A DNA stretch of 64,000 nt, taken from sequence record PX421306.1. The stretch is one strand, 5' to 3'. The notes beneath the pieces are model-generated. The model was given only the letters and a program-made list of their open reading frames with translations, was not told the origin of the DNA and did no database searches. This stretch comes from a phage. The translations under genes and the position numbers were made by a program. This document shows, piece after piece, positions 160 through 56,538 of the stretch (its first letter is position 1; every line of letters begins with the position of its first letter).

Positions 160-1008
160 TTAATCAACTGCTATTGGATGAATAGCATTAAACTTATGAA
201 ACGCTTCTGATTTTTCTTTGCGCGAAACACACATGCGAAGAACCTTTAATGGCTCGTCTTCTTCACCCAACGATTTTCGTTTTTCAATATTAGAAGTTTT
301 CCAACGAGCTTGCTCTGGAAACTCTTTATTGATTTGCTCAAGAGCTCTATTATGTTTTGAATTACTACGAATTGAACTACATCCGCCTGGAGCTTGTGCT
401 TTTCCAGACACAACCAGATATTTGAACAAAGCCAAATGCGGATAACCTTGGTTAATTAAATTGAGAAATGCATACATATCTTCACATAAATCAATTTTTC
501 CATACCCAATTTGTTCTGTAGTAAGTTTTCCGAGGTCATACCATGTATTCGTGAATCCATATGAATTTTCACGATAATTACCCCAAGATGAAGTAATTTT
601 AAAAATAGGTAGACGAGCATGACCGTGATAATACCCGCAATCCATGGCATCTTCCACGTATTGAATCAATTCATAGAACTGTTCACGAGTTAACTGATTA
701 ATTTTATCTACGCAGCGACGATCATCTTTCTTTCGCATTGAACTCATACGAATAGTAGTATCATCATCAATCATCCAAATTCGTTGACCTGCATACATAT
801 CAGTAATTGCTTTACGAGTTCCAGCAATTCCATTAACATCATCAGGAATAGTTATAATTTTAGCTCTAGACCCGTAAGCGTCATAATAAGCTTTTTCTTC
901 GTGTTCACGTACTACAATATGAGGTTCATAATCAGTCGGAAACATATCAAGGGCAGAAACTGTCCCTACGCGTTGATAGCTTGGAATTACGAATTGAATC
1001 ATTTCCAC
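160..1008 (-). CDS. putative GT-A-fold glycosyltransferase at the beta-glucosyltransferase locus (DNA hmC sugar modification candidate)
   Basis: 282-aa ORF between uvsX and gene 42; N-terminal FVIPSYQR and IWMIDDD (DxD) motifs typical of GT-A enzymes; does not resemble T4 beta-gt. Confidence 0.55.
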   Translation of the reverse strand: MEMIQFVIPSYQRVGTVSALDMFPTDYEPHIVVREHEEKAYYDAYGSRAKIITIPDDVNGIAGTRKAITDMYAGQRIWMIDDDTTIRMSSMRKKDDRRCVDKINQLTREQFYELIQYVEDAMDCGYYHGHARLPIFKITSSWGNYRENSYGFTNTWYDLGKLTTEQIGYGKIDLCEDMYAFLNLINQGYPHLALFKYLVVSGKAQAPGGCSSIRSNSKHNRALEQINKEFPEQARWKTSNIEKRKSLGEEDEPLKVLRMCVSRKEKSEAFHKFNAIHPIAVD

Positions 1009-12612: not shown

Positions 12613-13815
12613 TTATTTTGTAATAATGTCAAACTGTTCTTTAAAGCAGAAGCTTGAATCTTGATGCTGATACAAAAATTCATAAGCTTTTTCACGTTCA
12701 CGGTCATAAAGAGCTCGGTCAGATGACAGTTCTTTAATACGTTCAAATGTTGATTCCATGTCATTTTCATCAAACCAAACGATACCGCTATCATGAGAAA
12801 TTAACGGAGTATTATCAACACGGAATTTTAAATTTTCGCCAGTAGATTTCCAAAATACTGGAATTGTTCCACATGCACCAAGCTCGAGATGAGTGTATTC
12901 TAAAGAACGCTGTAGATATTTTTTATCTAATTTACTCAGCTGATAACCAAATCCGGATTTACTCATGCGTTCAAGCATTTCGCTATTTACATAACGGTCG
13001 AGAATTTGCGTTGGCAAATTAGGAGCAATTTTAATTTGGTCTACTTGATGAAGACGATAATACTCGTATGGAATTCCTTTTTCTTTAATAGGAATGAATG
13101 CTGGAGAACGTTCCAGACCTTCCATAACAGTACTTAGTCCTGCGGGTTTAAGATGTTTTTCGTGAAAATCAAACATCTGATAAAAACCTTTCCATGTAGT
13201 AGTACGACCAATCCAACGGTTGATATTCATGTTAATTTCAGAAACATCTTTCCAGTAAGTTGATCGAACCTTCGCAATATCCATAGGAGGCTGAAAGTTA
13301 TATACGGTCGGTGCTTCTTCAATATCATCAAACAGAGAAACAGTTTCCGGATACCATTCTTTCATTAAAACTTTATTAAAATCACCATTATCAGAATGGC
13401 TAAAAATAACATCAGCTTGACGAACAGTTTCTTCTAATCCCAAATTTCGGCGCAAAGAAAGAGAAGAATGGTCATGTTGATAAACTACAACACGAACCGA
13501 AGGTTTAATGTTATCAATAATTTTTTTATAGTTATTAATTGTGTCTTCTTCAACTGAAGTAGCAGGAACTGAATTGATAATTAGAATATCACAATCATTT
13601 ACCAGTTTAAGTGTTTTATCGTATTCTTTTGCCAATAAAACCGGAATTGAAAATGATTTATAATCATGCGCGCAATTACGGGTAAATGATTTATCTTTAG
13701 CATAAACCAAAGTTACTTCATGACCATTTTTAATAAACCAATCACGCTGCTCAAGAGAAAATTTAGTTACGCCACAACCTTCAAGACCTCGAGCCATAAA
13801 AATGCATACTTTCAT
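12613..13815 (-). CDS. agt: DNA alpha-glucosyltransferase
   Basis: 400 aa, near-identical to recalled T4 a-gt (MRICIFMARGLEGCGVTKFS...). Confidence 0.92.
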   Translation of the reverse strand: MKVCIFMARGLEGCGVTKFSLEQRDWFIKNGHEVTLVYAKDKSFTRNCAHDYKSFSIPVLLAKEYDKTLKLVNDCDILIINSVPATSVEEDTINNYKKIIDNIKPSVRVVVYQHDHSSLSLRRNLGLEETVRQADVIFSHSDNGDFNKVLMKEWYPETVSLFDDIEEAPTVYNFQPPMDIAKVRSTYWKDVSEINMNINRWIGRTTTWKGFYQMFDFHEKHLKPAGLSTVMEGLERSPAFIPIKEKGIPYEYYRLHQVDQIKIAPNLPTQILDRYVNSEMLERMSKSGFGYQLSKLDKKYLQRSLEYTHLELGACGTIPVFWKSTGENLKFRVDNTPLISHDSGIVWFDENDMESTFERIKELSSDRALYDREREKAYEFLYQHQDSSFCFKEQFDIITK

Positions 13816-14230
13816 TTAATATCCTCATTGTTTTGGTTTATTTTACCAAAAATTTGTAAAGCAATATAGGAGCCGAAGCTCCTATCCGCATAATACACCG
13901 TACAGAGGCTCATTAGAGCTTCTAAATTTTATACGCTTATATGTTATAGTTCCTTCTGCTTTAGCTTTATCATGAGACTCTTTAAAGCGCCTCATCATTT
14001 CTACTTTAGAGGAACGAATTTTATTATAATCTATTTCAGAAGTCTGGGTGTTCATCTTTCACAGTTGCCACCATTTTTTGACTTGATAGGAATCAACCCA
14101 CACTTTCATATTAGGGTCTGCTCTTACAATAGGAGGATTAACTTCTTTAATTGAACTATCATGGTATTCTTTTTCAGAAATTTTCACGCAAAGATGACCA
14201 TTCAAAGATTCAGTAAATCCTGCATTAATT

Positions 14231-17854: not shown

Positions 17855-18325
17855 TTAATCATGTTTCCACACCCCATCGGTATTTGACCAAAGTCGCTGA
17901 TTATCTGAACCTCGCCACAGCTTTTTGGTCGGAAGATTTTTCTCATACTTCCCATCAATAATAACATCAACATATTTAAGCATTTCTAGTTGTTTAATAT
18001 CTTCAAACTTATATCCTGTCCACAACCAAATGCTTTTATTCGGATAAAGATTTTTTACTGTTTGAACAATGCAATGAACAACATCTCGGTTATCTGGATA
18101 GAGAGGGTCTCCTCCAGTTATAGTTAATCCTTCTATATAATCATTATTCAAACATTTAATTAATTGTTCTAGTGTTTCACCAGTGAATGGAACGCCATTT
18201 CTAGCATTCCATGTTGATTTATTATAACACCCTTCACATTTATGCAAACAACCTGTAACGAAAAGAACGACCCTGCATCCAGGGCCATTCACAAAATCAC
18301 AGGGATAAAATCTATCGTAATTCAT
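17855..18325 (-). CDS. nrdG: anaerobic ribonucleotide reductase activating protein NrdG (radical SAM)
   Basis: 156 aa; CxxxCxxC-type cluster GCLHKCEGCYN. Confidence 0.9.
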   Translation of the reverse strand: MNYDRFYPCDFVNGPGCRVVLFVTGCLHKCEGCYNKSTWNARNGVPFTGETLEQLIKCLNNDYIEGLTITGGDPLYPDNRDVVHCIVQTVKNLYPNKSIWLWTGYKFEDIKQLEMLKYVDVIIDGKYEKNLPTKKLWRGSDNQRLWSNTDGVWKHD

Positions 18326-20139
18326 TGGTGTTTAACCCTATGCATGATTTCTTTATTTTTGCCGAGATTAAATCCGCGTTCATTCGGATTTCCCAAATAA
18401 CCACAAGTTCTTCTTATTGTGTTCATCTTTTTAGGATCAGTTTCTCCACAAATAGAACAAACAAATCCGTTTTCAGTAGGAGTCATTTCATGGGTACTTC
18501 CACACGTAAAACATTTATCTACTGGCATGTTAACACCAAAATAATCTAAATGTTGTGCAGCATAATCCCATACAGCCTCAAGACCTTTTAGGTTATTTTT
18601 CATATCAGGAAGTTCAACATAAGAAATGTGACCGCCTGTCGCAATGAAATGATATGGGGCTTCGCGAGAAATCTTTTCAAACGGAGTAATATTTTCTTCT
18701 ACTGAAACGTGGAAACTATTAGTGTACCAACCTTTATCAGTAACATCTTTTACGCTTCCATATTTTTCGGTATCAAGTTTACAGAAGCGATAGCACAGGT
18801 TTTCAGCAGGTGTAGAATACAAACTAAAAGCAAAACCAGTTCTTTCAGTCCACTGCTTAAGACGAGCATTCATTTTAGTTAAAATTTCCTGTCCAATATC
18901 ACGACCGACAAGAATATTCAATTCGTGAATACCAATGTATCCTAAGGACACTGAACTTCTACCGTTTTTAAATAACTCAATTATATCGTCATCAGGTTTA
19001 AGACGAACCCCGAATGCACCTTCTTGGTAAAGAATAGGAGCAACAGTCGCTTTAACTCCTTTTAAGGAACTAATTCTACACATCAAAGCTTCAAAACACA
19101 AATCCATTCGTTCATTGAACAATTCGGCAAATTTCTGTTCATTGAATTGTGTTCCAATATAAGAATCTAACGCAATGCGAGGAAGATTCAGTGTTACAAC
19201 GCCAAGATTATTACGTCCATCAAGAATTTCATTACCAGTCGAATCTTTCCATACGCTCAAGAAACTACGGCAACCCATTGGAGAAACAGGAATAGATGAA
19301 CCGGTGATAGCTTTATTGTTCTTAGCCGAAATGATGTCAGGATACATTCTTTTACTTGCACACTCTAGAGCAAGCTGCTTAATATCATAGTTCGGATCGT
19401 CTTTATAAAGATTAACACCTTCTTCAACGAACATAACAAGTTTAGGGAAAATAGGAGTTATCCCATCACGACCAAGGCCTTTAATACGATTTTTCAGAAT
19501 TGCTTTCTGAATCATTCGTTCAGTCCAGTCAGTTCCCGTACCAAATGTAATTGTTACAAAAGGCGTTTGTCCGTTTGAACTAAAGAGAGTATTTACTTCG
19601 TATTCATAAGCTTGGAACGCATCGTATACGTCTTTTTCTGTTTTAGATTGGGCATAATTCAACGCATCAGCGATTTGCCATTTTTCTGCATCCTCAATAT
19701 GTTTTGCATAGGTGCGTTTAACATAAGGAGAAAGGACTTTATCTACATTCGCAAAAGTCGTTCCACCATATTGATGGGAAGCAACCTGTGCAGTAATTTG
19801 TGCCATAATTGCAGTAGCAACACCGATTGATTTAGGAGTTTCAATCTGTGCATTACCGAGCTTAAATCCGTTCTCAAGCATTCCTTTTAAATCTACTAAA
19901 CAGCAATTAGTAAATGGAAGAGCAGGGGAATAATCAATATCATGGAAATGAATAATTCCGCTTTCATGCGCTTTCATAATAAAAGACGGGACCATATTTT
20001 TGGCAATGTGTTTAGACACAATACCAGCCATAAGGTCCCGTTGAGTTGGAAAAACACGAGAATCTTTATTAGCATTCTCGTTTAAAAGGTCTTTATTAGT
20101 TTTATGAATCAATCCTTCAATTTCTTTTTCAATTGTCAT
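18322..20139 (-). CDS. nrdD: anaerobic ribonucleotide reductase NrdD (glycyl radical enzyme), intronless
   Basis: 605-aa uninterrupted ORF; C-terminal glycyl radical motif RRTCGY; Zn-ribbon cysteines. Confidence 0.93.
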   Translation of the reverse strand: MTIEKEIEGLIHKTNKDLLNENANKDSRVFPTQRDLMAGIVSKHIAKNMVPSFIMKAHESGIIHFHDIDYSPALPFTNCCLVDLKGMLENGFKLGNAQIETPKSIGVATAIMAQITAQVASHQYGGTTFANVDKVLSPYVKRTYAKHIEDAEKWQIADALNYAQSKTEKDVYDAFQAYEYEVNTLFSSNGQTPFVTITFGTGTDWTERMIQKAILKNRIKGLGRDGITPIFPKLVMFVEEGVNLYKDDPNYDIKQLALECASKRMYPDIISAKNNKAITGSSIPVSPMGCRSFLSVWKDSTGNEILDGRNNLGVVTLNLPRIALDSYIGTQFNEQKFAELFNERMDLCFEALMCRISSLKGVKATVAPILYQEGAFGVRLKPDDDIIELFKNGRSSVSLGYIGIHELNILVGRDIGQEILTKMNARLKQWTERTGFAFSLYSTPAENLCYRFCKLDTEKYGSVKDVTDKGWYTNSFHVSVEENITPFEKISREAPYHFIATGGHISYVELPDMKNNLKGLEAVWDYAAQHLDYFGVNMPVDKCFTCGSTHEMTPTENGFVCSICGETDPKKMNTIRRTCGYLGNPNERGFNLGKNKEIMHRVKHQ

Positions 20140-29348: not shown

Positions 29349-30362
29349 TCATTTATAATAACTTCGATGGTTTTCAAGATAAACCCTCTCAAGGAAGTCA
29401 TCCCAGAAACCCATGTCTACTTTTTGCTGCATACCGTTCTTAGAAGCTTCAATAGATGCTGCTTCTACTTGATCGACCACATCTTCCAAAAACTCTTGAA
29501 CAGTTTTAAATGGGTGTTTACCCAGCTTCACGTCGAGAATAAATGGAGCGTCTTGAAGTGGATAGACTAAGTCACCAGTTTTGTAAATTTCCAATAGTTG
29601 GAGTCCACCACGACAAGCATGACTCAGAGCTTTCCAGTCAATACCTTCATTAGCTTCAGCCTTACGAGCGCGCTCGCCATATTCAGCATCAAGTTTATTC
29701 AGGGATTGCTTGAGCTCTGTAATTGATAACGTTGTTTGGTACTTACGTCCGAGAACAGTATAGAACGTTTGTGGACCTGTTTTCTCATGGTTATGGAATA
29801 CCCATTCACAGAATTCGTTTTCTGGAAGACGGTGTTTAATATCTGCAATTTTAGTACGACGTTGTCCTTGTGTTCCATCTTCTCGGTAATCAATCCACTG
29901 CTCAGGGATTTGATTAACTACTTTCAATACATCACGTAATGCAGCCAAACGAGAACCTTTGACACCGTATTTAGAAGCTTGCTTGCGGACATATCCTAAA
30001 TATGATTTCATGTTAGTTGTATAAAAACGAGAACGGTTGTCTTGAATAAACTTCCACACATCAGGTAAATCAGATTTAACCACTAGTTCAGGTGGAGTGT
30101 GAAGCATATCTAATGCTACGGTTTCACCATCTGCTGCTAATTTAAAGAAATATTTAAGACTGTATAGTTCATGGTCAATATCATCTTTAGTGTTTTTAGA
30201 TGATGTGTTGTTAGTGTTTTTACTCATATGCTCTTTAACATTTCCGATAAGAATATCACGAGCAGGAGGAACAAAGATTTCTTTAAAATCTACATCAGAT
30301 TCTGGAGTAGAAGTTCCATAAAGATGACTACCAAAATAGCTTTTCATTACTGTTTTCATCAT
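29349..30362 (-). CDS. nucleotidyltransferase-fold (pol-beta superfamily) protein, function unknown
   Basis: 337 aa; GSHLYGTSTPESDVDF matches hG[GS]x9-13DhD plus a downstream Asp (ALDMLH); long C-terminal extension. Confidence 0.6.
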   Translation of the reverse strand: MMKTVMKSYFGSHLYGTSTPESDVDFKEIFVPPARDILIGNVKEHMSKNTNNTSSKNTKDDIDHELYSLKYFFKLAADGETVALDMLHTPPELVVKSDLPDVWKFIQDNRSRFYTTNMKSYLGYVRKQASKYGVKGSRLAALRDVLKVVNQIPEQWIDYREDGTQGQRRTKIADIKHRLPENEFCEWVFHNHEKTGPQTFYTVLGRKYQTTLSITELKQSLNKLDAEYGERARKAEANEGIDWKALSHACRGGLQLLEIYKTGDLVYPLQDAPFILDVKLGKHPFKTVQEFLEDVVDQVEAASIEASKNGMQQKVDMGFWDDFLERVYLENHRSYYK

Positions 30363-30820
30363 TCAGCCTTATATTCAATAACAGGACATACTTTAGCTTT
30401 ACGCGCTTTTAAAAATTCGACGATAATAGATTTCTTTGGTTGAATAGGAGGTAAACCTTTATACGCCCTATCAATATTTTCTACATGTAAAGCATAATCC
30501 TTTTTCCATTTATAATCTTTATATTTTTCATGCAGTTGTGCAGGAATAACAAATGAACCAATAATAAGTAAAACAAGCAAAATAGCAAGTATAAATGCTG
30601 ATGGAATAAGAGTCCATAAACTACCAAAAATAAGCCATTTCTGCATGATTTCTGCGCAGATGATAGTTAGACCTGCGAGTATAGTACATCCGAAAAAAGA
30701 AACGAAAAATGTAGGGATAACAATAGACCAAAAATATGCACACAGTGTCTTAGGTCGTTTCCATTCGTCGTTAAACATTTTGAATAATTTATAGTGCCAA
30801 GAGCTTTCATTAATAATCAT
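30359..30820 (-). CDS. hypothetical polytopic membrane protein
   Basis: 153 aa, 3-4 predicted TM helices; stop overlaps the NTase start. Confidence 0.5.
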   Translation of the reverse strand: MIINESSWHYKLFKMFNDEWKRPKTLCAYFWSIVIPTFFVSFFGCTILAGLTIICAEIMQKWLIFGSLWTLIPSAFILAILLVLLIIGSFVIPAQLHEKYKDYKWKKDYALHVENIDRAYKGLPPIQPKKSIIVEFLKARKAKVCPVIEYKAE

Positions 30821-30822
30821 AA

Positions 30823-31344
30823 TTATCCTTTCATTGAAGGTGTAACAGTTGTTAAATACTTAATCATAGCTTCAGCTTCTGATTTTGATAATGAAATTTC
30901 TCCATTGTTTTGACGAATAGAAATAAAATCCGGATGACGGTCACCACCAGCTTTTAAAATACACATATAAGTATCAGTTTCATCTTCAATATCTGAAATG
31001 ATTGAAGCAGTTCCGCATGAATGTGGTTTTTGATAAATCAATGCAGCTTTTCTTCCACCGTTTGACTGTTCATAAACTTTTAACACATCAAACAAATCAC
31101 TTCTTTTATCAATAGCTAAGATGTTGTTTTCATCTTCAATGTTAAATCCTTCGGATACTTCATAAAGTGTCACCCATAAATCGCCAATATCAATGACAGC
31201 ATTCACCTTTCCATGATTTTCAAGAGCATTACAAATTTTCTTAATTTCATCATAACTCATTTTAATAATATCATCTCCTTGAATAAGGAAGATGTCATTT
31301 TTAAATTCAACACGAATTAAACTGCTTTCACTTGAAATAAACAT
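30823..31344 (-). CDS. hypothetical protein (paralog of 31351-31902)
   Basis: 173 aa; shares GFNIEDE and C-terminal A.L.KYLT.V.PSM motifs with neighbour. Confidence 0.5.
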   Translation of the reverse strand: MFISSESSLIRVEFKNDIFLIQGDDIIKMSYDEIKKICNALENHGKVNAVIDIGDLWVTLYEVSEGFNIEDENNILAIDKRSDLFDVLKVYEQSNGGRKAALIYQKPHSCGTASIISDIEDETDTYMCILKAGGDRHPDFISIRQNNGEISLSKSEAEAMIKYLTTVTPSMKG

Positions 31345-34165: not shown

Positions 34166-34747
34166 CTAACCGAGCTTTTTAGTTAATTCATTCCAATGTT
34201 TTCTGCACAAAGAAACATAAATTTCATCACCAATACAGATTTGATTACCTTCTTTAACTGGTGTTCCATCTTCCATTAATCGAGCTGTCATAATCGCTTT
34301 TTTACCACAATGACAAACTGCTTTTAGTTCAATAAGTTTATCTGCAATCGCCAAAAGTTCTTTAGAACCTTCAAATAATTTTCCAGCGAAATCAGTCCTT
34401 AGTCCATAAGCCATAACAGGAACATTGTATGTATCGACAATTCGGCTTAATTGATGCACCTGTTCAGTTTTTAAAAACTGAGCTTCATCTACAAATACGC
34501 AATGAATATCTTTTTGTGCTTCAGCCCATTTATAGAACTCAAAAATATCCATATCATCCGTAATAATATTCGCTTCCTGTTTAATTCCAATGCGAGAAAC
34601 GACTTCACAGACAGAATCGCGAGTATCAATAGCAGGTTTAAGAACTAATACACCCATTCCGCGTTCTTTATAATTATGCGCAGCAGTCAAAAGAGAAGCA
34701 GATTTTCCAGCATTCATTGCTGCATAAGTAAAAATTAAACTCGCCAT
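34166..34747 (-). CDS. tk: thymidine kinase
   Basis: 193 aa; P-loop NAGKSASLL; C-terminal Zn-binding cysteines. Confidence 0.92.
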   Translation of the reverse strand: MASLIFTYAAMNAGKSASLLTAAHNYKERGMGVLVLKPAIDTRDSVCEVVSRIGIKQEANIITDDMDIFEFYKWAEAQKDIHCVFVDEAQFLKTEQVHQLSRIVDTYNVPVMAYGLRTDFAGKLFEGSKELLAIADKLIELKAVCHCGKKAIMTARLMEDGTPVKEGNQICIGDEIYVSLCRKHWNELTKKLG

Positions 34748-34756
34748 ATCACCTTC

Positions 34757-34942
34757 TTAAAGCGTATTCACATAATCTATTAATTCGTTTTCTTTCTTAT
34801 CAAACCGGTCAGCAAATTCTTCTTGCTGTTCGGGAGATAGCGGGCCGTATTCATCATAAAAGGTGTTTGCTTCTGTATGCTCATCTAGAAGTTCATGGAT
34901 AAGCTCAAACAATTTATCTTTTTGTTCTTTGCTTAGGCTCAC
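34757..34942 (-). CDS. hypothetical acidic protein (tk.1 position)
   Basis: 61-aa ORF. Confidence 0.45.
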   Translation of the reverse strand: MSLSKEQKDKLFELIHELLDEHTEANTFYDEYGPLSPEQQEEFADRFDKKENELIDYVNTL

Positions 34943-35111
34943 AGTATGTTAATCCCCAAAAGTTTTAAAATGACTCGTTTCTGATTCATAACCGCTACGA
35001 TTGAATGACCGTTGGGGTCTTTTTGACCCGATCCAATTATAAATCCTTTTTGTGCAGAAAGTTCAATCAAAACATCAAGTTCACGTAATAATTGATATTT
35101 TAAATCATCAT

Positions 35112-35339
35112 TCATTTTGGTTTACCTTCTTTAACGAAATCAGGATAAGGATAAAATCCTGAATAAAATCCTTCACCTTTATGATTGATGCATCCTTTAT
35201 TAGAACAATAGCACCAATAATCGAAATCACAAGCCATTTCATCATTACATAAAGCAAAAACAACAGGCCATTTACACTTTTCACAATGGGCATTTTTAAG
35301 AATACTAGTTTGGCTCATAACCATGTAACCTTTAAGCAA
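35112..35339 (-). CDS. hypothetical Cys-rich protein
   Basis: 75 aa; CEKC...CxC...CSNKGCINH suggests metal binding. Confidence 0.4.
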   Translation of the reverse strand: MLKGYMVMSQTSILKNAHCEKCKWPVVFALCNDEMACDFDYWCYCSNKGCINHKGEGFYSGFYPYPDFVKEGKPK

Positions 35340-35527
35340 TATTCTTCTACATGTTGTTTACGACCTTTCCTATCAATAAAGGTATATTCAACGAATGTTC
35401 CAATATAGTCTTTATCTACATCATGAGGACTATTAATTGGGCATTTAGTACGGCAAATGCGTTCCCATTGACGAATAATTTCTGCTTTGTTTTTAGGATC
35501 AAACGGATGCGGGTAATGTACTTTCAT
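35315..35527 (-). CDS. hypothetical protein
   Basis: 70-aa ORF with stop/start overlaps. Confidence 0.45.
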   Translation of the reverse strand: MKVHYPHPFDPKNKAEIIRQWERICRTKCPINSPHDVDKDYIGTFVEYTFIDRKGRKQHVEEYCLKVTWL

Positions 35528-35978
35528 AATCCACCACTATCAAATCAATATCAGGAGTAAACATGTCGATTAATTTAGAAACCTTATCCCAATCACCGCC
35601 AGCAATACCACAACCTATGCGTGGAATGTAAATTACTGGTTTAAACAAAAGGGTCTCTGCCTGTAGATTTAATTCTATCATGCAGTTTACTAAAGCACCA
35701 TAATCAAGATTAGGACCCGGTTCGTATTGCGTATAAAGGTTATAGCATATACCAAATCCTGTAGGACTGTGTTTAAAAACAATAGACATATCGCCTAATT
35801 TATCACGAGAACCGTACTCGGTAGTGGTTTTATCTATTTCTAAAATTTTGGGATAGGCTTTTGCTAATTGACCTGCTACGCCAGAGCCCATTGTGTGGAA
35901 GCAATTGCACCCGTGCGCAATAATATTACCTTGAAGAAATAGGGCGACAATATCGCCCTTGATATATTTTACAATCAT
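35499..35978 (-). CDS. macro-domain protein (ADP-ribose binding/hydrolase fold)
   Basis: 159 aa; GDIV...NIIAHGCNC...MGSGVAGQLAKAYP and IGCGIAGGDW align to macro-domain signature motifs. Confidence 0.6.
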   Translation of the reverse strand: MIVKYIKGDIVALFLQGNIIAHGCNCFHTMGSGVAGQLAKAYPKILEIDKTTTEYGSRDKLGDMSIVFKHSPTGFGICYNLYTQYEPGPNLDYGALVNCMIELNLQAETLLFKPVIYIPRIGCGIAGGDWDKVSKLIDMFTPDIDLIVVDYESTLPASV

Positions 35979-36316
35979 CTAGTACTCAATCCTCGATTAT
36001 AAGAATCTACTAAACGGTCAACCATTGAATGACAAGCGGCTTTATCTTTCTCCTCCGCAACTGAACATTCTAAGGTATTCCACTTTTTAGCATATCGTTT
36101 TAATAAAGTATCGTTCTTGTATCTGCTTGATTTATCTCTTTCTCCGTCTTTATATGCATATATTAATTTCTGCGCAAATTCAGCTTGGCATGCTTTATTT
36201 TTCCCACAATAATCCGCGGCAGTACGGTTTACATACTCTCTAACTTCAGAATATGATATATCTGCTAACGCAGAAAATGAAATTAATCCTACACATAAAA
36301 CCAAAATTTTAGTCAT
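35975..36316 (-). CDS. hypothetical secreted protein (vs locus)
   Basis: 113 aa with signal peptide MTKILVLCVGLISFSALA and several Cys. Confidence 0.5.
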   Translation of the reverse strand: MTKILVLCVGLISFSALADISYSEVREYVNRTAADYCGKNKACQAEFAQKLIYAYKDGERDKSSRYKNDTLLKRYAKKWNTLECSVAEEKDKAACHSMVDRLVDSYNRGLSTR

Positions 36317-39517: not shown

Positions 39518-39991
39518 TTATTTGAATGATTTGACGTACTGAATAGAACCTTTACTATTCACGAAAGCGATTTTACCATTCTTATTATACATGGTAGCAG
39601 TACGCTGATAGCCATAAGTTTGCTTACCGGATTGATAACCAACTAATGCGAAATTATCTTCACCCATTTTATTCTGTTTAGCACGAATACGTTCATGACC
39701 GTGTGCCATAAGAACCTTAGCATCACCAGTTGAAATTGATCTACGAGTTTTTTCATCTTCAACTGTATTAACAAAGTCGTCAAATGAATCAAATTTAGCA
39801 TGGGATTTATTATACAGTTTTCCATCTACTGCATAATTATATCCCTGTACATCCATCTCAACTTCTGTACCATCATCCAATACAGCAGTGATTTTTTGAC
39901 CTTTTTTAAATTTCAAAAGATCAGTAAAAGATTCAGCAATAATTTGAGAATTAATAGCTGCTTCAGTAATAAATTCTTGATATGTTTTCAT
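39518..39991 (-). CDS. capsid-targeted internal protein (IPIII position, divergent)
   Basis: 157 aa; N-terminal capsid targeting sequence MKTYQEFITE with LxE cleavage motif. Confidence 0.65.
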   Translation of the reverse strand: MKTYQEFITEAAINSQIIAESFTDLLKFKKGQKITAVLDDGTEVEMDVQGYNYAVDGKLYNKSHAKFDSFDDFVNTVEDEKTRRSISTGDAKVLMAHGHERIRAKQNKMGEDNFALVGYQSGKQTYGYQRTATMYNKNGKIAFVNSKGSIQYVKSFK

Positions 39992-40005: not shown

Positions 40006-40323
40006 TTATTCTTTAGGGAAGTTTTTAGAATATGCATCATAAAGCTTATTTCCAATACGGCGGAAAACTCTAGCCGCAAAACGATTTTCTGGGTTTTTAA
40101 TCATGATTTGCATCATATAAGTACCCGCGTCAGAAAGAGCTTCTTCATAGTACCCATTAATTTCTTTAAGAGTCCTACGTTTACCACCAGGACCATCAAC
40201 AGTAATTTTCCATTTACCTGTAGAAGTGCGGCTCGGTGGCTCAACTTGTTCAATCCAAATATAACCTCCTTCTACACGTTGTCCTTGGGCAGATTCTGCA
40301 ATAAATTCTTTATACGTTTTCAT
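40006..40323 (-). CDS. ipII: internal protein II-like
   Basis: 105 aa; N-terminal MKTYKEFIAE targeting sequence; position adjacent to denV. Confidence 0.65.
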   Translation of the reverse strand: MKTYKEFIAESAQGQRVEGGYIWIEQVEPPSRTSTGKWKITVDGPGGKRRTLKEINGYYEEALSDAGTYMMQIMIKNPENRFAARVFRRIGNKLYDAYSKNFPKE

Positions 40324-41339: not shown

Positions 41340-41795
41340 TTAAAAGAGGCTGTTCATTATTCGGTAAAGTGAAGGACCCATCACATATTGCCACTGAGTA
41401 CGAGGAATAAGGGCAAAAGCATCCATCTCTGGAATCATAACACCATCTTTATTTTCAAAATAAGACTCGCAATGGCAATTTCTAAACATCTCATGCTCTA
41501 CTGGAATCGTATAATAAAATAACTGTAAGTCTTTATTACTAGAATATTTAAATACACCTAGGTCTTCTAGAAGGTCTGGACTATAATTGCTAAAACCGGT
41601 CTCTTCTAAACATTCTCTTCGTGCTGCATCTAGTGCGCTTAAATCAGAATTTTCTACGCGCCCCCTTGGAATATCCCAGCGATGTGCCATCATTCCAGGC
41701 TTACGAGAACCAGTAACTCGTCCCATAAATAAATCTTTATCTTCTGTCATAAAGATAATACCAGCTGATAATGTTTTCATTTTAATTTCCTGCAT
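41340..41795 (-). CDS. nudE: Nudix hydrolase NudE
   Basis: 151 aa; Nudix box GRVENSDLSALDAARRECLEETGF. Confidence 0.85.
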   Translation of the reverse strand: MQEIKMKTLSAGIIFMTEDKDLFMGRVTGSRKPGMMAHRWDIPRGRVENSDLSALDAARRECLEETGFSNYSPDLLEDLGVFKYSSNKDLQLFYYTIPVEHEMFRNCHCESYFENKDGVMIPEMDAFALIPRTQWQYVMGPSLYRIMNSLF

Positions 41796-45855: not shown

Positions 45856-46419
45856 TTATTTATCTAGTTTAGTTATTATAGCTTCTGCGGCAGCTTTTAG
45901 CTTAGATGCGGTGTTAATACGATTTTTAATTTCAGTATACGCATCGCCAAGAACATCAAGGCTATCAGAATAAACACTTACGCTATTGCGTTCGCTATTT
46001 GAAATAGAACCTTTAGTTTTACGATCAAAATCGGTGTACACGTCTTGAAGATCACGGGCTGCCTTCTTTGCATCATCCAATGCATCAAGAGCTTTATTCA
46101 AAGCATTAACGTATTTTTTAGTGTCGAACATATTCTTAGAAATTTTAACAGGTGCGCGTTCAGGAGTAGCTAATGCAGATTTAGGAACCTGAGCGCCAGA
46201 TGCCAATTTCTTAGAAATTTTGAAAAACGCTTTATTGAATTTATTTTCTTGACTCATCGTAAAAGAACTATTATCGATGTTGTACATTTCAATAGCTTTA
46301 GCTTTCCACTTAAGAAAATCGCCGCGGTCTTTTGGGTCCAAGTGGAAGAATACTTTAGTAAGATCTGCTTCAGATGGTAATTTTGCTGCTTCGGTTAAAA
46401 ATTCGGCATAGGTTTTCAT
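45856..46419 (-). CDS. capsid-targeted internal-protein-like protein (extra IP)
   Basis: 187 aa; N-terminal MKTYAEFLTE targeting sequence with LxE motif; Lys-rich. Confidence 0.6.
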   Translation of the reverse strand: MKTYAEFLTEAAKLPSEADLTKVFFHLDPKDRGDFLKWKAKAIEMYNIDNSSFTMSQENKFNKAFFKISKKLASGAQVPKSALATPERAPVKISKNMFDTKKYVNALNKALDALDDAKKAARDLQDVYTDFDRKTKGSISNSERNSVSVYSDSLDVLGDAYTEIKNRINTASKLKAAAEAIITKLDK

Positions 46420-46543: not shown

Positions 46544-47017
46544 TTATTTGATTTGTTTAGCAGACCAAATGCGGTCTTTGATGATTTTTTGGATGTCTTC
46601 AACATACTCTAGGTCATGAGCATGTGGGTTATCTTTGAAACTATAAGCACGAGCTAGTTTTTGGCCTTCAGTTTTGATTACTAAAAGCTCTTTAAGGATA
46701 GCTTCATATTTAGCGATAATTCCTTTAACAATATTTTTTTCTTGTGCAGCTTTAGGATCTGCTTTAGGAGCAGGTTTACCCGAAGCCTTTGCAAAAGCAG
46801 CACCAGTAGCAACTAAACTTTTCCAGGCCATACTAACCGCATTTCCTGTAAATCCTTCTGCTTTCATGTCGCGAGCAAACTGGAATCGTGATTCGTCAGA
46901 AGCATCTTTATAGGAATATTTACCCGCTGCAATGGCTGCTTTTGCGACAGCTTGAATTTCGGTGCTAGATGCTTCATTTAACACCGCTTCATTTAAAAAT
47001 TGAGCATATGATTTCAT
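46544..47017 (-). CDS. capsid-targeted internal-protein-like protein (extra IP)
   Basis: 157 aa; N-terminal MKSYAQFLNE targeting-like sequence; Ala/Lys-rich. Confidence 0.55.
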   Translation of the reverse strand: MKSYAQFLNEAVLNEASSTEIQAVAKAAIAAGKYSYKDASDESRFQFARDMKAEGFTGNAVSMAWKSLVATGAAFAKASGKPAPKADPKAAQEKNIVKGIIAKYEAILKELLVIKTEGQKLARAYSFKDNPHAHDLEYVEDIQKIIKDRIWSAKQIK

Positions 47018-47405: not shown

Positions 47406-47756
47406 TTAATATTCTTTTAAAGCATCAATCTGTTCACGGCGTTTACGCCATAAATCAATTGCTTCATACGCAGATTCAGCATTTCGAATTGGACGGCATT
47501 TATATAAAGACTTATGATTTTGATATTGTGTAGATAACGGAATTTTATCTAAAAGGTCTTTACGTTCAAAGTATTCGTAACCATCTAAGCCAAATGAACG
47601 ATTTTTGAGAAATTGCCAATGACCGTATTCGTTTTCGACATAAACATAATCTGCGTGCTGATAAAGCAAATTAATTACGCGTTCAGAAATAACAGTGTCA
47701 TTATGATTAAAATAGAATGTTAAATCATGAACTACTAAATAAACATTACCTTTCAT
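47406..47756 (-). CDS. hypothetical protein
   Basis: 116-aa ORF between tRNA-Arg and the small-RNA region. Confidence 0.5.
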   Translation of the reverse strand: MKGNVYLVVHDLTFYFNHNDTVISERVINLLYQHADYVYVENEYGHWQFLKNRSFGLDGYEYFERKDLLDKIPLSTQYQNHKSLYKCRPIRNAESAYEAIDLWRKRREQIDALKEY

Positions 47757-47772
47757 ATTTTCCTCACTTAAT

Positions 47773-47848
47773 TGGTCGAGGCAGTAGGGATCGAACCTAC
47801 GACCTAGGACTTAGAAGGTCCTTGCTCTTCCTTCTGAGCTATGCCTCG
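47773..47848 (-). tRNA. tRNA-Arg (anticodon UCU)
   Basis: 76 nt cloverleaf folded by hand; anticodon loop CUUCUAA; GGUUCGAUCC T-arm; encoded CCA. Confidence 0.85.
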
Positions 47849-47852
47849 GATT

Positions 47853-47927
47853 TGGCGGACGTGATAGGATTCGAACCTATAACCAATCGCTTAACAGGCG
47901 ATCGCTCTGCCATTGAGCTACACATCC
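47853..47927 (-). tRNA. tRNA-Asn (anticodon GUU)
   Basis: 75 nt; anticodon stem ATCGC/GCGAT, loop CUGUUAA; TTCGAAT T-loop; encoded CCA. Confidence 0.8.
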
Positions 47928-47931
47928 AAAT

Positions 47932-48018
47932 TGGTGGGGAGTGATGGAGTCGAACCACCCGAGTCGCAATGACAATGGATTTACAGTCCACACCGCTACC
48001 TCTACGGGATAACTCCCC
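47932..48018 (-). tRNA. tRNA-Tyr (anticodon GUA)
   Basis: 87 nt with long variable arm; anticodon loop CUGUAAA; encoded CCA. Confidence 0.75.
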
Positions 48019-48031
48019 TTAATTCTTAATT

Positions 48032-48106
48032 TGGTGGCCCTGGGTGGAATTGAACCACCATCTGGCGATTATGAGTCGCTTGCTTGAACCTTCCAGCTAC
48101 AGGGCC
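48032..48106 (-). tRNA. tRNA with CAU anticodon (Met, or Ile if lysidine-modified)
   Basis: 75 nt; perfect 7-bp acceptor stem; anticodon loop CUCAUAA; encoded CCA. Confidence 0.75.
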
Positions 48107-49992: not shown

Positions 49993-50689
<697 letters not shown>

Positions 50690-55715: not shown

Positions 55716-56244
55716 TATACTTCCAATGAGCGCTGATTTAGGAGAATCCATGGAAGGTTCTTCTATCGACGTCACCTTTACCGCTCAATTAGAAACAGGT
55801 GAAACGTTAGTATCTATAAATATAACTAGTTACGAAGAAACTCCTGGGGTTTTAGTAGAAGAAAATCGTTTATATGGAACGTATGAATCTGTATTTGGAT
55901 TTGGAAATGACGCATTGAAATATCGTTTAGATAATGAATTTAAAACTGCTGCTTCATGGGAAGACCTTCCAACTGATTCTAATACTCAGTTATATCTATG
56001 GAACGCTCCTCAAAACCTCCAGAAGACATTCACTTACGAAGTAACATTAATATATGACTACCAAGAACAAAGTGAATCTGGAGGTTCTGGCAGTAATTCT
56101 AGGTCATCTTCTGATACTACTGAACCAACGAATCCTCCAGCTCCAATAAGAAAAACTCTTGTTAAAAATTATACAAAAACTATAGTTGGAAATTGGAGTC
56201 GTTGGGCTAATAAATTGAGAAGCTATGTGTATGAGAGGCCATAA
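55687..56244 (+). CDS. 5.1: hypothetical protein gp5.1
   Basis: 185-aa ORF between 5 and 5.4. Confidence 0.6.
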   Translation: MMDRGLTLANILPMSADLGESMEGSSIDVTFTAQLETGETLVSINITSYEETPGVLVEENRLYGTYESVFGFGNDALKYRLDNEFKTAASWEDLPTDSNTQLYLWNAPQNLQKTFTYEVTLIYDYQEQSESGGSGSNSRSSSDTTEPTNPPAPIRKTLVKNYTKTIVGNWSRWANKLRSYVYERP

Positions 56245-56538
56245 ATGTCAGGATTAAGTTACGATAAGTGTGTTACTGCTGGCCATGCTTCATGGCCTCC
56301 AACAGTTGTGAATGCCACACAAAGTAAAGTATTCACTGGAGGAATTGCTGTTCTCGTAGCAGGTGATCCAATTACAGAACATACAGAAATTAAAAAGCCA
56401 TATGAAACACATGGCGGAGTGACACAACCTAGAACTTCTAAGGTATATGTCACTGGAAAGAAAGCTGTTCAAATGGCTGATCCAATATCATGCGGTGATA
56501 CTGTGGCTCAGGCATCATCTAAAGTATTCATTAAATAG
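56245..56538 (+). CDS. 5.4: PAAR-repeat spike tip protein gp5.4
   Basis: 97 aa as in T4 gp5.4. Confidence 0.85.

Follow-up and report, generated by a model that had tools for sequence, protein, structure and literature searches.

A glutamine-type macro domain at the tk.4 (adfM) locus of a T4-like phage and its probable role against DarT2

Phage T4 lacking both adfA and adfN remains resistant to DarTG2, and a further resistance factor was predicted (PMC11825919). When a transposon library of T4 was screened on a host expressing DarTG2, tk.4 was the sole significant hit, and a clean tk.4 deletion made T4 DarTG2-sensitive; the gene was renamed adfM, for anti-DarT factor Macrodomain (November 2025 preprint, bioRxiv 10.1101/2025.11.20.689424). 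In that preprint, enzymatic removal of ADP-ribose from DNA by AdfM is the authors' inference and not the result of an assay. Here we describe the counterpart of this gene in phage sequence record PX421306.1. The DNA analyzed is 64,000 nucleotides long (hereafter, the window), and the gene in question is a single long open reading frame (ORF) at 35499..35978 on the minus strand, with an ATG start and 159 codons.

Among macro domains of the ALC1-like class, DarG requires Lys80, while TARG1 uses Lys84 together with Asp125. In SCO6735, Gln85 has been equated with this lysine position, and Q85A or Q85E substitution abolishes activity (PMC9411070). SCO6735 strips thymidine-linked ADP-ribose from DarT-modified single-stranded DNA (ssDNA) faster than DarG or TARG1, does not attack guanine-linked ADP-ribose, and rescues E. 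coli from DarT (PMC9411070). For this enzyme, to which BT1257 is 54% identical, a mechanism that is water-mediated and substrate-assisted has been proposed (PMC9411070). PhiKZ gp104 is, like T4 Tk.4, a stand-alone phage macro domain that counters DarTG2, and it too was named AdfM. In vitro it takes DarT2-made ADP-ribose off DNA, an activity that is lowered by N23A substitution (PMC13309987).

The first-pass annotation had assigned the window ORF to the macro domains on the basis of four motifs, all of which were present in the translation: GDIV (8-11), NIIAHGCNC (18-26), MGSGVAGQLAKAYP (30-43), and IGCGIAGGDW (121-130). This assignment held up in profile searches. Pfam Macro (PF01661) matched with E=1.4e-7 and a score of 31.9 bits (gathering cut-off, 22), spanning profile positions 2-117 of 118 (116 covered). 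PHROG 335, which carries the name 'phosphatase', matched with E=5e-72, and 767 homologous protein clusters were found at E<1e-5. From these clusters 56 homologues were taken to build a family alignment, which also served as AlphaFold2 input. Structure prediction, proposed earlier as a check, returned the three-layer alpha/beta/alpha macro fold (predicted local distance difference test 93.2, predicted template modelling score 0.88), with disorder limited to residues 155-159.

Foldseek comparison of the model with the PDB placed TARG1, Poa1p, the DarG macrodomains of T. aquaticus and M. tuberculosis, BT1257, and SCO6735 among the top matches. The family profile searched against PDB sequences recovered the same proteins (BT1257, 1.5e-20; TARG1, 2e-17; SCO6735, 1.6e-16; Poa1p, 2e-14; DarG, 1e-11). 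The nearest relatives by sequence and by structure thus belong to the ALC1-like class, clearly ahead of the MacroD, viral, and PARG types. The Gly-rich loops were also present, with G31 and G33 (MGSG) and G122 invariant across all compared macrodomains. Taken together, alignment and model identify the ORF as a real macro domain of the ALC1-like class (TARG1/DarG/SCO6735/Poa1p).

The window is Tequatrovirus DNA, collinear over its whole length with T4 from ~25.5 to ~88.5 kb. As the first-pass annotation had stated, the ORF lies in the tk-vs region: tk (34166-34747) and vs (35975-36316, minus strand; valyl-tRNA synthetase modifier) were recognized by protein identity to T4 (99% and 96%, respectively). 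In T4, tk.3 and vs are separated by tk.4 (NP_049723, 155 aa), annotated as 'phosphatase; contains A1pp phosphatase motif'. The window ORF aligns with T4 Tk.4 over its full length (59% identity over 155 aa, E=6e-71). Because it shares both the tk.3-vs position and this full-length similarity, comparison with T4 identifies it as the positional orthologue of tk.4 (adfM). The two proteins are of one length class, 159 and 155 aa, and the 4 extra C-terminal residues of the window protein were modelled as disordered.

This identity had escaped the first-pass annotation, as had the labels already in GenBank: near-identical proteins in several Tequatrovirus genomes are called 'macro domain protein' or 'phosphatase'. 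The 3.5 kb around the ORF are 97-98% identical to many genomes of that genus, e.g. Shigella phage KRT47, Salmonella phage pSe_SNUABM_01, and Escherichia phage teqdroes. The gene and its anti-defence role are already known, and we regard it as a widely annotated, ordinary anti-defence gene. The earlier suggestion that a phage macro domain could reverse DarT-type ADP-ribosylation is supported by the published tk.4 genetics, for the T4 allele only. The other functions raised in the first-pass annotation, breakdown of signals derived from ADP-ribose and a link to ADP-ribosyltransferases of the phage itself, are less likely. Orthology to a T4 ORF of unrelated function had been named as grounds for rejecting that suggestion; a T4 orthologue does exist, but its function is the proposed one.

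We then compared the putative active site with those of characterized relatives. All features of the site are encoded on the minus strand. The first active-site strand and loop (codons H22-G23-C24-N25-C26, 35901..35915) contains four residues, H22, G23, N25, and C26, that are invariant in the 56 family members. It is followed by the predicted GxG ADP-ribose-binding loop (M30-G31-S32-G33, 35880..35891). Here, only G31 and G33 are invariant across the window ORF, T4 Tk.4, BT1257, TARG1, both DarG macrodomains, and PhiKZ gp104. Family conservation also outlines the phosphate-binding loop (G122-C-G-I-A-G-G-D-W130, 35589..35615), in which A126, G127, and G128 are conserved in at least 90% of members. 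Other invariant positions are G33, N80, Y82, G122, G124, and W130.

The residue that sets this family apart from DarG is Q84 (codon CAA, 35727..35729), present in 56 of 56 homologues. Profile alignment placed the family NLYTQ on TARG1 YLITK and on BT1257 NMIGQ, and GCGIAGG on TARG1 GCGLDRL. In these columns the catalytic Lys of TARG1 (K84) is replaced by Q84, and its partner D125 by A126. A MAFFT alignment likewise placed Q84 in the Lys column of TARG1, both DarG macrodomains (K80), and PhiKZ gp104. By these alignments, the active site is not DarG-like; it carries a Gln in place of the DarG/TARG1 catalytic Lys, as SCO6735 does. The equivalence of Q84 with SCO6735 Q85 was drawn through TARG1 K84 and BT1257 and not from a direct residue-level alignment with SCO6735. 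Identity to the Gln-type ALC1-like macrodomains SCO6735 and BT1257 (PDB 5E3B and 2FG1/2AFC) is only ~27%. By residue spacing, H22 and N25 would correspond to SCO6735 His24 and Asn27 (PMC9411070). N25 also aligns with PhiKZ gp104 N23 and with the DarG 'TVN' motif. Given the activity of SCO6735 and its 54% identity to BT1257, the closest relative of solved structure, there is biochemical precedent for a lysine-free enzyme in the role inferred for Tk.4.

Differences from DarG extend beyond the change of Lys80 to Gln84 relative to its macrodomain (T. aquaticus, 5M31; M. tuberculosis, 5M3I). DarG possesses a C-terminal DarT-binding domain and an adjacent darT gene, whereas the 159-aa window protein has neither, its gene being flanked by tk.3 and vs. 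Membership in the DarG family was rejected on the NCBIfam model NF048014, which scored 28.2 bits against a cut-off of 250 and matched at model positions 2-142 of 338, the macro part only. PhiKZ gp104 shares the conserved Asn and the acidic character of the window protein. It matches DarG with E=9e-25 and keeps the FPTK lysine, in contrast to the Gln of the window ORF, and BLASTP between the two phage proteins gave just 23 bits over 23 residues. Judged by these sequences, the name AdfM covers two macro lineages, the Lys-type, DarG-like gp104 and the Gln-type Tk.4, which have function and fold in common but differ in lineage.

Comparison with T4 revealed a sharp change in divergence within the gene. 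The macro-domain protein is 59% identical to its T4 counterpart, against 93% for Tk.3 and 99% for both Vs.1 and RegB, in addition to Tk and Vs. From 35330 to 35480 and again from 35947 onward, nucleotide identity to T4 is at least 93% and at least 95%, respectively, but it drops to 42-75% inside the divergent segment (35510..35900, minus strand). This pattern marks the gene as an allele replacement relative to T4. H22, N25, Q84, and the GxG loop are identical in the two alleles. The phosphate-binding loop is GAGIGKGNW in T4 Tk.4, an unusual form, versus the family-consensus GCGIAGGDW in the window allele.

Homologues occur in ~2,790 of 50,697 phage-collection records. The window allele is present at ≥90% identity in 319 records, and a 60-80% relative in 110. 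The T4 type accounts for 224 records at ≥90%, and a type 80-90% identical to T4 for another 159. Polymorphism of this cassette-like kind is frequent at accessory loci of T4; at tk.4 it would fit an arms race without demonstrating one. One could go further and view tk.4 as a swappable counter-defence cassette whose alleles, 59% identical and with different phosphate-binding loops in surroundings that are otherwise 93-100% identical, are kept as alternatives neutralizing different ADP-ribosyltransferases (DarT2 variants or RNA/protein-targeting enzymes), a proposal that we find doubtful at present.

The most probable explanation of these data is that the window gene encodes an early, stand-alone ADP-ribosylglycohydrolase that strips DarT2-made thymidine-ADP-ribose from phage ssDNA by a Gln-dependent, lysine-free route. 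In this model, Tk.4/AdfM would be a small macro domain made early, within the regB-vs.1-vs-tk.4-tk run. Host DarT2 toxin would ADP-ribosylate thymidines in single-stranded phage DNA, and the Gly-rich cleft formed by the MGSG and GCGIAGG loops would bind the ADP-ribose. Hydrolysis of the N-glycosidic bond would then release ADP-ribose and restore a replicable template. The chemistry would probably be that proposed for SCO6735 and not that of DarG, with Q84, H22, and N25 positioning substrate and water. We infer that the window allele acts like that of T4 and that its mechanism is enzymatic. Retained catalysis is argued by the invariance of all putative catalytic residues among the 56 homologues, and retention of the family-consensus phosphate loop by the window allele lends further support.

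Several observations weigh against a DarT2-directed glycohydrolase. Evidence for the Tk.4 family is purely genetic and comes from a preprint, and the T4 allele is the one whose anti-DarTG2 phenotype is known. The window protein differs from it at 41% of residues, including four phosphate-loop positions. The DarG/TARG1 lysine is absent from the family. The mobile loop of SCO6735 and BT1257, 5 residues longer than that of DarG/TARG1, is also missing, the family profile having a 6-residue gap opposite BT1257 'YKDskglppIRY'. Residue spacing further suggests that the DNA-contacting Lys34 and Lys89 of SCO6735 are replaced by S32 (Ser/Ala in the family) and G88. Finally, the window protein is acidic (isoelectric point 5.0; family median ~6), unlike the basic BT1257 and electropositive SCO6735. 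Acidity was dropped as an argument against DNA binding, since PhiKZ gp104, a proven DNA-ADP-ribose hydrolase, is equally acidic.

Relatives of 33-44% identity were found at no fewer than 505 bacterial loci, mostly in marine Rhodobacteraceae, Verrucomicrobia, Desulfobacterales, and Planctomycetes. They are stand-alone genes of ~150 aa, with a Pelagimonas example located among housekeeping genes. Neighbourhoods were analyzed for the best 80 homologue loci. A tblastn search of these loci with P. aeruginosa DarT2 gave a best E of 0.68, within the limited sensitivity of a single query. Scanned with Pfam, 114 flanking ORFs yielded neither a DarT family nor a recurrent neighbour; the neighbours seen included two NADAR, two PRPP (phosphoribosyl pyrophosphate)-synthetase, and two integrase genes. 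An operonic DarTG-antitoxin origin was unsupported, as darT was not linked to any of the 80 loci, and this too counts against the proposed function. With no DarT or recurrent neighbour at these 80 bacterial loci, the family looks less like captured DarTG antitoxins than like orphan genome guardians of the SCO6735 style.

Could the enzyme act on soluble ADP-ribose derivatives instead? Candidates would include ADP-ribose-1''-phosphate, O-acetyl-ADP-ribose, and immune signals or toxins (e.g. the cyclic ADP-ribose isomers of Thoeris). The long-standing T4 annotation ('phosphatase; A1pp motif') and the PHROG 335 name point this way, and such a role was favoured on comparative grounds (PMC9503650). 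Yeast Poa1p (PDB 6LFQ), one of the best matches in both sequence and structure, is an ADP-ribose-1''-phosphate phosphatase that acts on a soluble by-product of tRNA splicing. In the alignment with the 6lfu F152A chain, Poa1p His23 and Ser30, the residues mutated in PDB 6lfs and 6lft, pair with H22 and T29, and Phe152 pairs with A126. Our literature search found no open paper on Poa1p structure and mechanism. Two bacterial homologues adjoin NADAR genes and two adjoin PRPP-synthetase genes, in line with a soluble substrate. However, macro domains commonly show ADP-ribose-1''-phosphatase activity on the side, and DarTG2 sensitivity is the sole phenotype on record for the orthologue in T4. With no Thoeris or RES-toxin phenotype found in the literature searched, we consider a soluble substrate unlikely.

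Two further alternatives retain ADP-ribosylation of macromolecules as the target. Reversal of protein or RNA ADP-ribosylation would involve Glu/Asp marks, host RNA-targeting ADP-ribosyltransferases, or the products of phage Alt/ModA/ModB. TARG1 and SCO6735 also de-modify Glu/Asp-ADP-ribosylated proteins, although SCO6735 strongly prefers DNA over protein substrates (PMC9411070). T-even phages themselves encode ADP-ribosyltransferases, and hosts possess RNA-targeting ones such as CmdTAC (PMC11618068). Genetic support for a protein or RNA target is lacking, and we consider such a target very unlikely. Alt, ModA, and ModB modify arginine, a linkage that, to our knowledge, macro domains of the ALC1-like class do not cleave. 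T-even phages also, as far as we know, remain CmdTAC-sensitive.

Protection against DarT2 might also be mainly non-catalytic, through toxin binding or inhibition or through shielding of the product. In vitro, DarT is still inhibited by catalytically dead forms of SCO6735 (Q85A), DarG (K80A), and TARG1 (K84A), most strongly by that of SCO6735 (PMC9411070), and sharp allele replacement is the pattern expected of a protein matching a variable partner. Yet every putative active-site residue is invariant in 56 diverse homologues, and the protein has no DarG-like C-terminal DarT-binding domain, given the extent of the DarG model match. We give this mechanism the least credence of the three. None of these alternatives has genetic support for Tk.4, and removal of thymidine-linked ADP-ribose remains our preferred explanation.

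The arrangement of neighbouring genes bears on how the enzyme would be expressed. The stop codon of vs overlaps the start codon of tk.4 as ATGA (35975-35978, minus strand), as read from ORF coordinates and sequence, making translational coupling of the two genes probable. At its 3' end, the macro-domain ORF shares 29 nt with tk.3; genes are usually packed this closely in the early regions of T4. A promoter scan found fewer sigma-70-like sites than in shuffled sequences, and nothing convincing as a promoter immediately upstream of the ORF. Since the only strong sigma-70-like site nearby (37379-37351) lies upstream of regB, the genes regB-vs.1-vs-tk.4-tk are presumably co-transcribed. A perfect, GC-rich hairpin of 8 bp at 35941-35959, inside codons 7-13 of the ORF, was flagged as terminator-like on both strands. 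A terminator role was rejected, since the 96 nt around the hairpin fold no better than shuffles (z=-1.5), and the hairpin is treated as chance or coding-driven. In a T2 study, the host small RNA ArcZ was reported to pair with tk.4 mRNA (bioRxiv 10.64898/2026.06.19.733364), and vs is the T4 gene with the strongest depletion in minimal medium (HIDEN-SEQ study, bioRxiv 10.1101/2025.11.20.689424).

The nearby tk.1-tk.2 interval (34757-35339, minus strand) is likewise replaced relative to T4 and holds three small ORFs. One encodes 61 aa (DUF7438, 54% identical to T4 Tk.2), and another 58 aa (phrog_3452, no Pfam match). The third encodes a Cys-rich 70-aa protein with a 'Phage zinc binding domain' (PF23895, E=2.6e-29) and has no counterpart in T4 from rI.-1 to vs.4. 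Two other ORFs on the minus strand were assigned as T4 orthologues by collinearity only. One, at 41340-41795, would correspond to T4 NudE, whose annotation is that of a Nudix hydrolase acting on ADP-ribose; its product could consume the ADP-ribose released by the macro domain. The other, at 49993-50448, would correspond to T4 57B/Acb1, a nuclease directed against CBASS (cyclic oligonucleotide-based antiphage signalling system). If both assignments are correct, the window holds several nucleotide-signal or ADP-ribose-related counter-defence genes.

Elsewhere in the window, the T4 beta-glucosyltransferase position (160-1002, minus strand) is occupied by a 280-aa beta-glucosyl-HMC-alpha-glucosyltransferase (HMC, hydroxymethylcytosine; phrog_842, E=6e-89; Pfam TAGT). 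Its presence in place of the T4 enzyme suggests that the phage DNA carries sugars in a T2/T6-type pattern. Four window-specific ORFs on the minus strand (39518-39991, 40006-40323, 45856-46419, and 46544-47017) encode proteins beginning MK(T/S)Y-(Q/K/A)-(E/Q)-F, a start resembling the capsid-targeting N-terminus of T4 internal proteins. One is a member of phrog_3155 ('internal virion protein'), and a paralogous pair falls in phrog_2280. These ORFs may encode alternative internal proteins that are injected, possibly as cargo against restriction. The window lacks counterparts of the T4 homing-endonuclease genes mobB, mobC, I-TevII (together with the nrdD intron), mobD, segB, and segC. The junctions with T4 at the missing genes fall at 13806-13831, 18305-18325, 19599-19604, 30364-31325, 47407-48086, and 56241-56246. 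A membrane protein and a y05I-like ORF (30359-31344) stand at the mobD position, and a 116-aa ORF with no assigned function (47406-47756) at that of segB.

For the Tk.4 family, these comparisons suggest that its biochemistry is better modelled on the lysine-free mechanism of SCO6735 than on DarG, and that use of the name AdfM for two lineages could mislead annotation transfer. The allele replacement is relevant to host-range prediction in phage therapy; if the cassette proposal were true, allele type would predict which host defences a T4-like phage overcomes. More broadly, the window gene fits the already published picture in which T-even phages layer enzymatic erasers against DNA ADP-ribosylation, with AdfN acting on guanine and Tk.4/AdfM on thymine.
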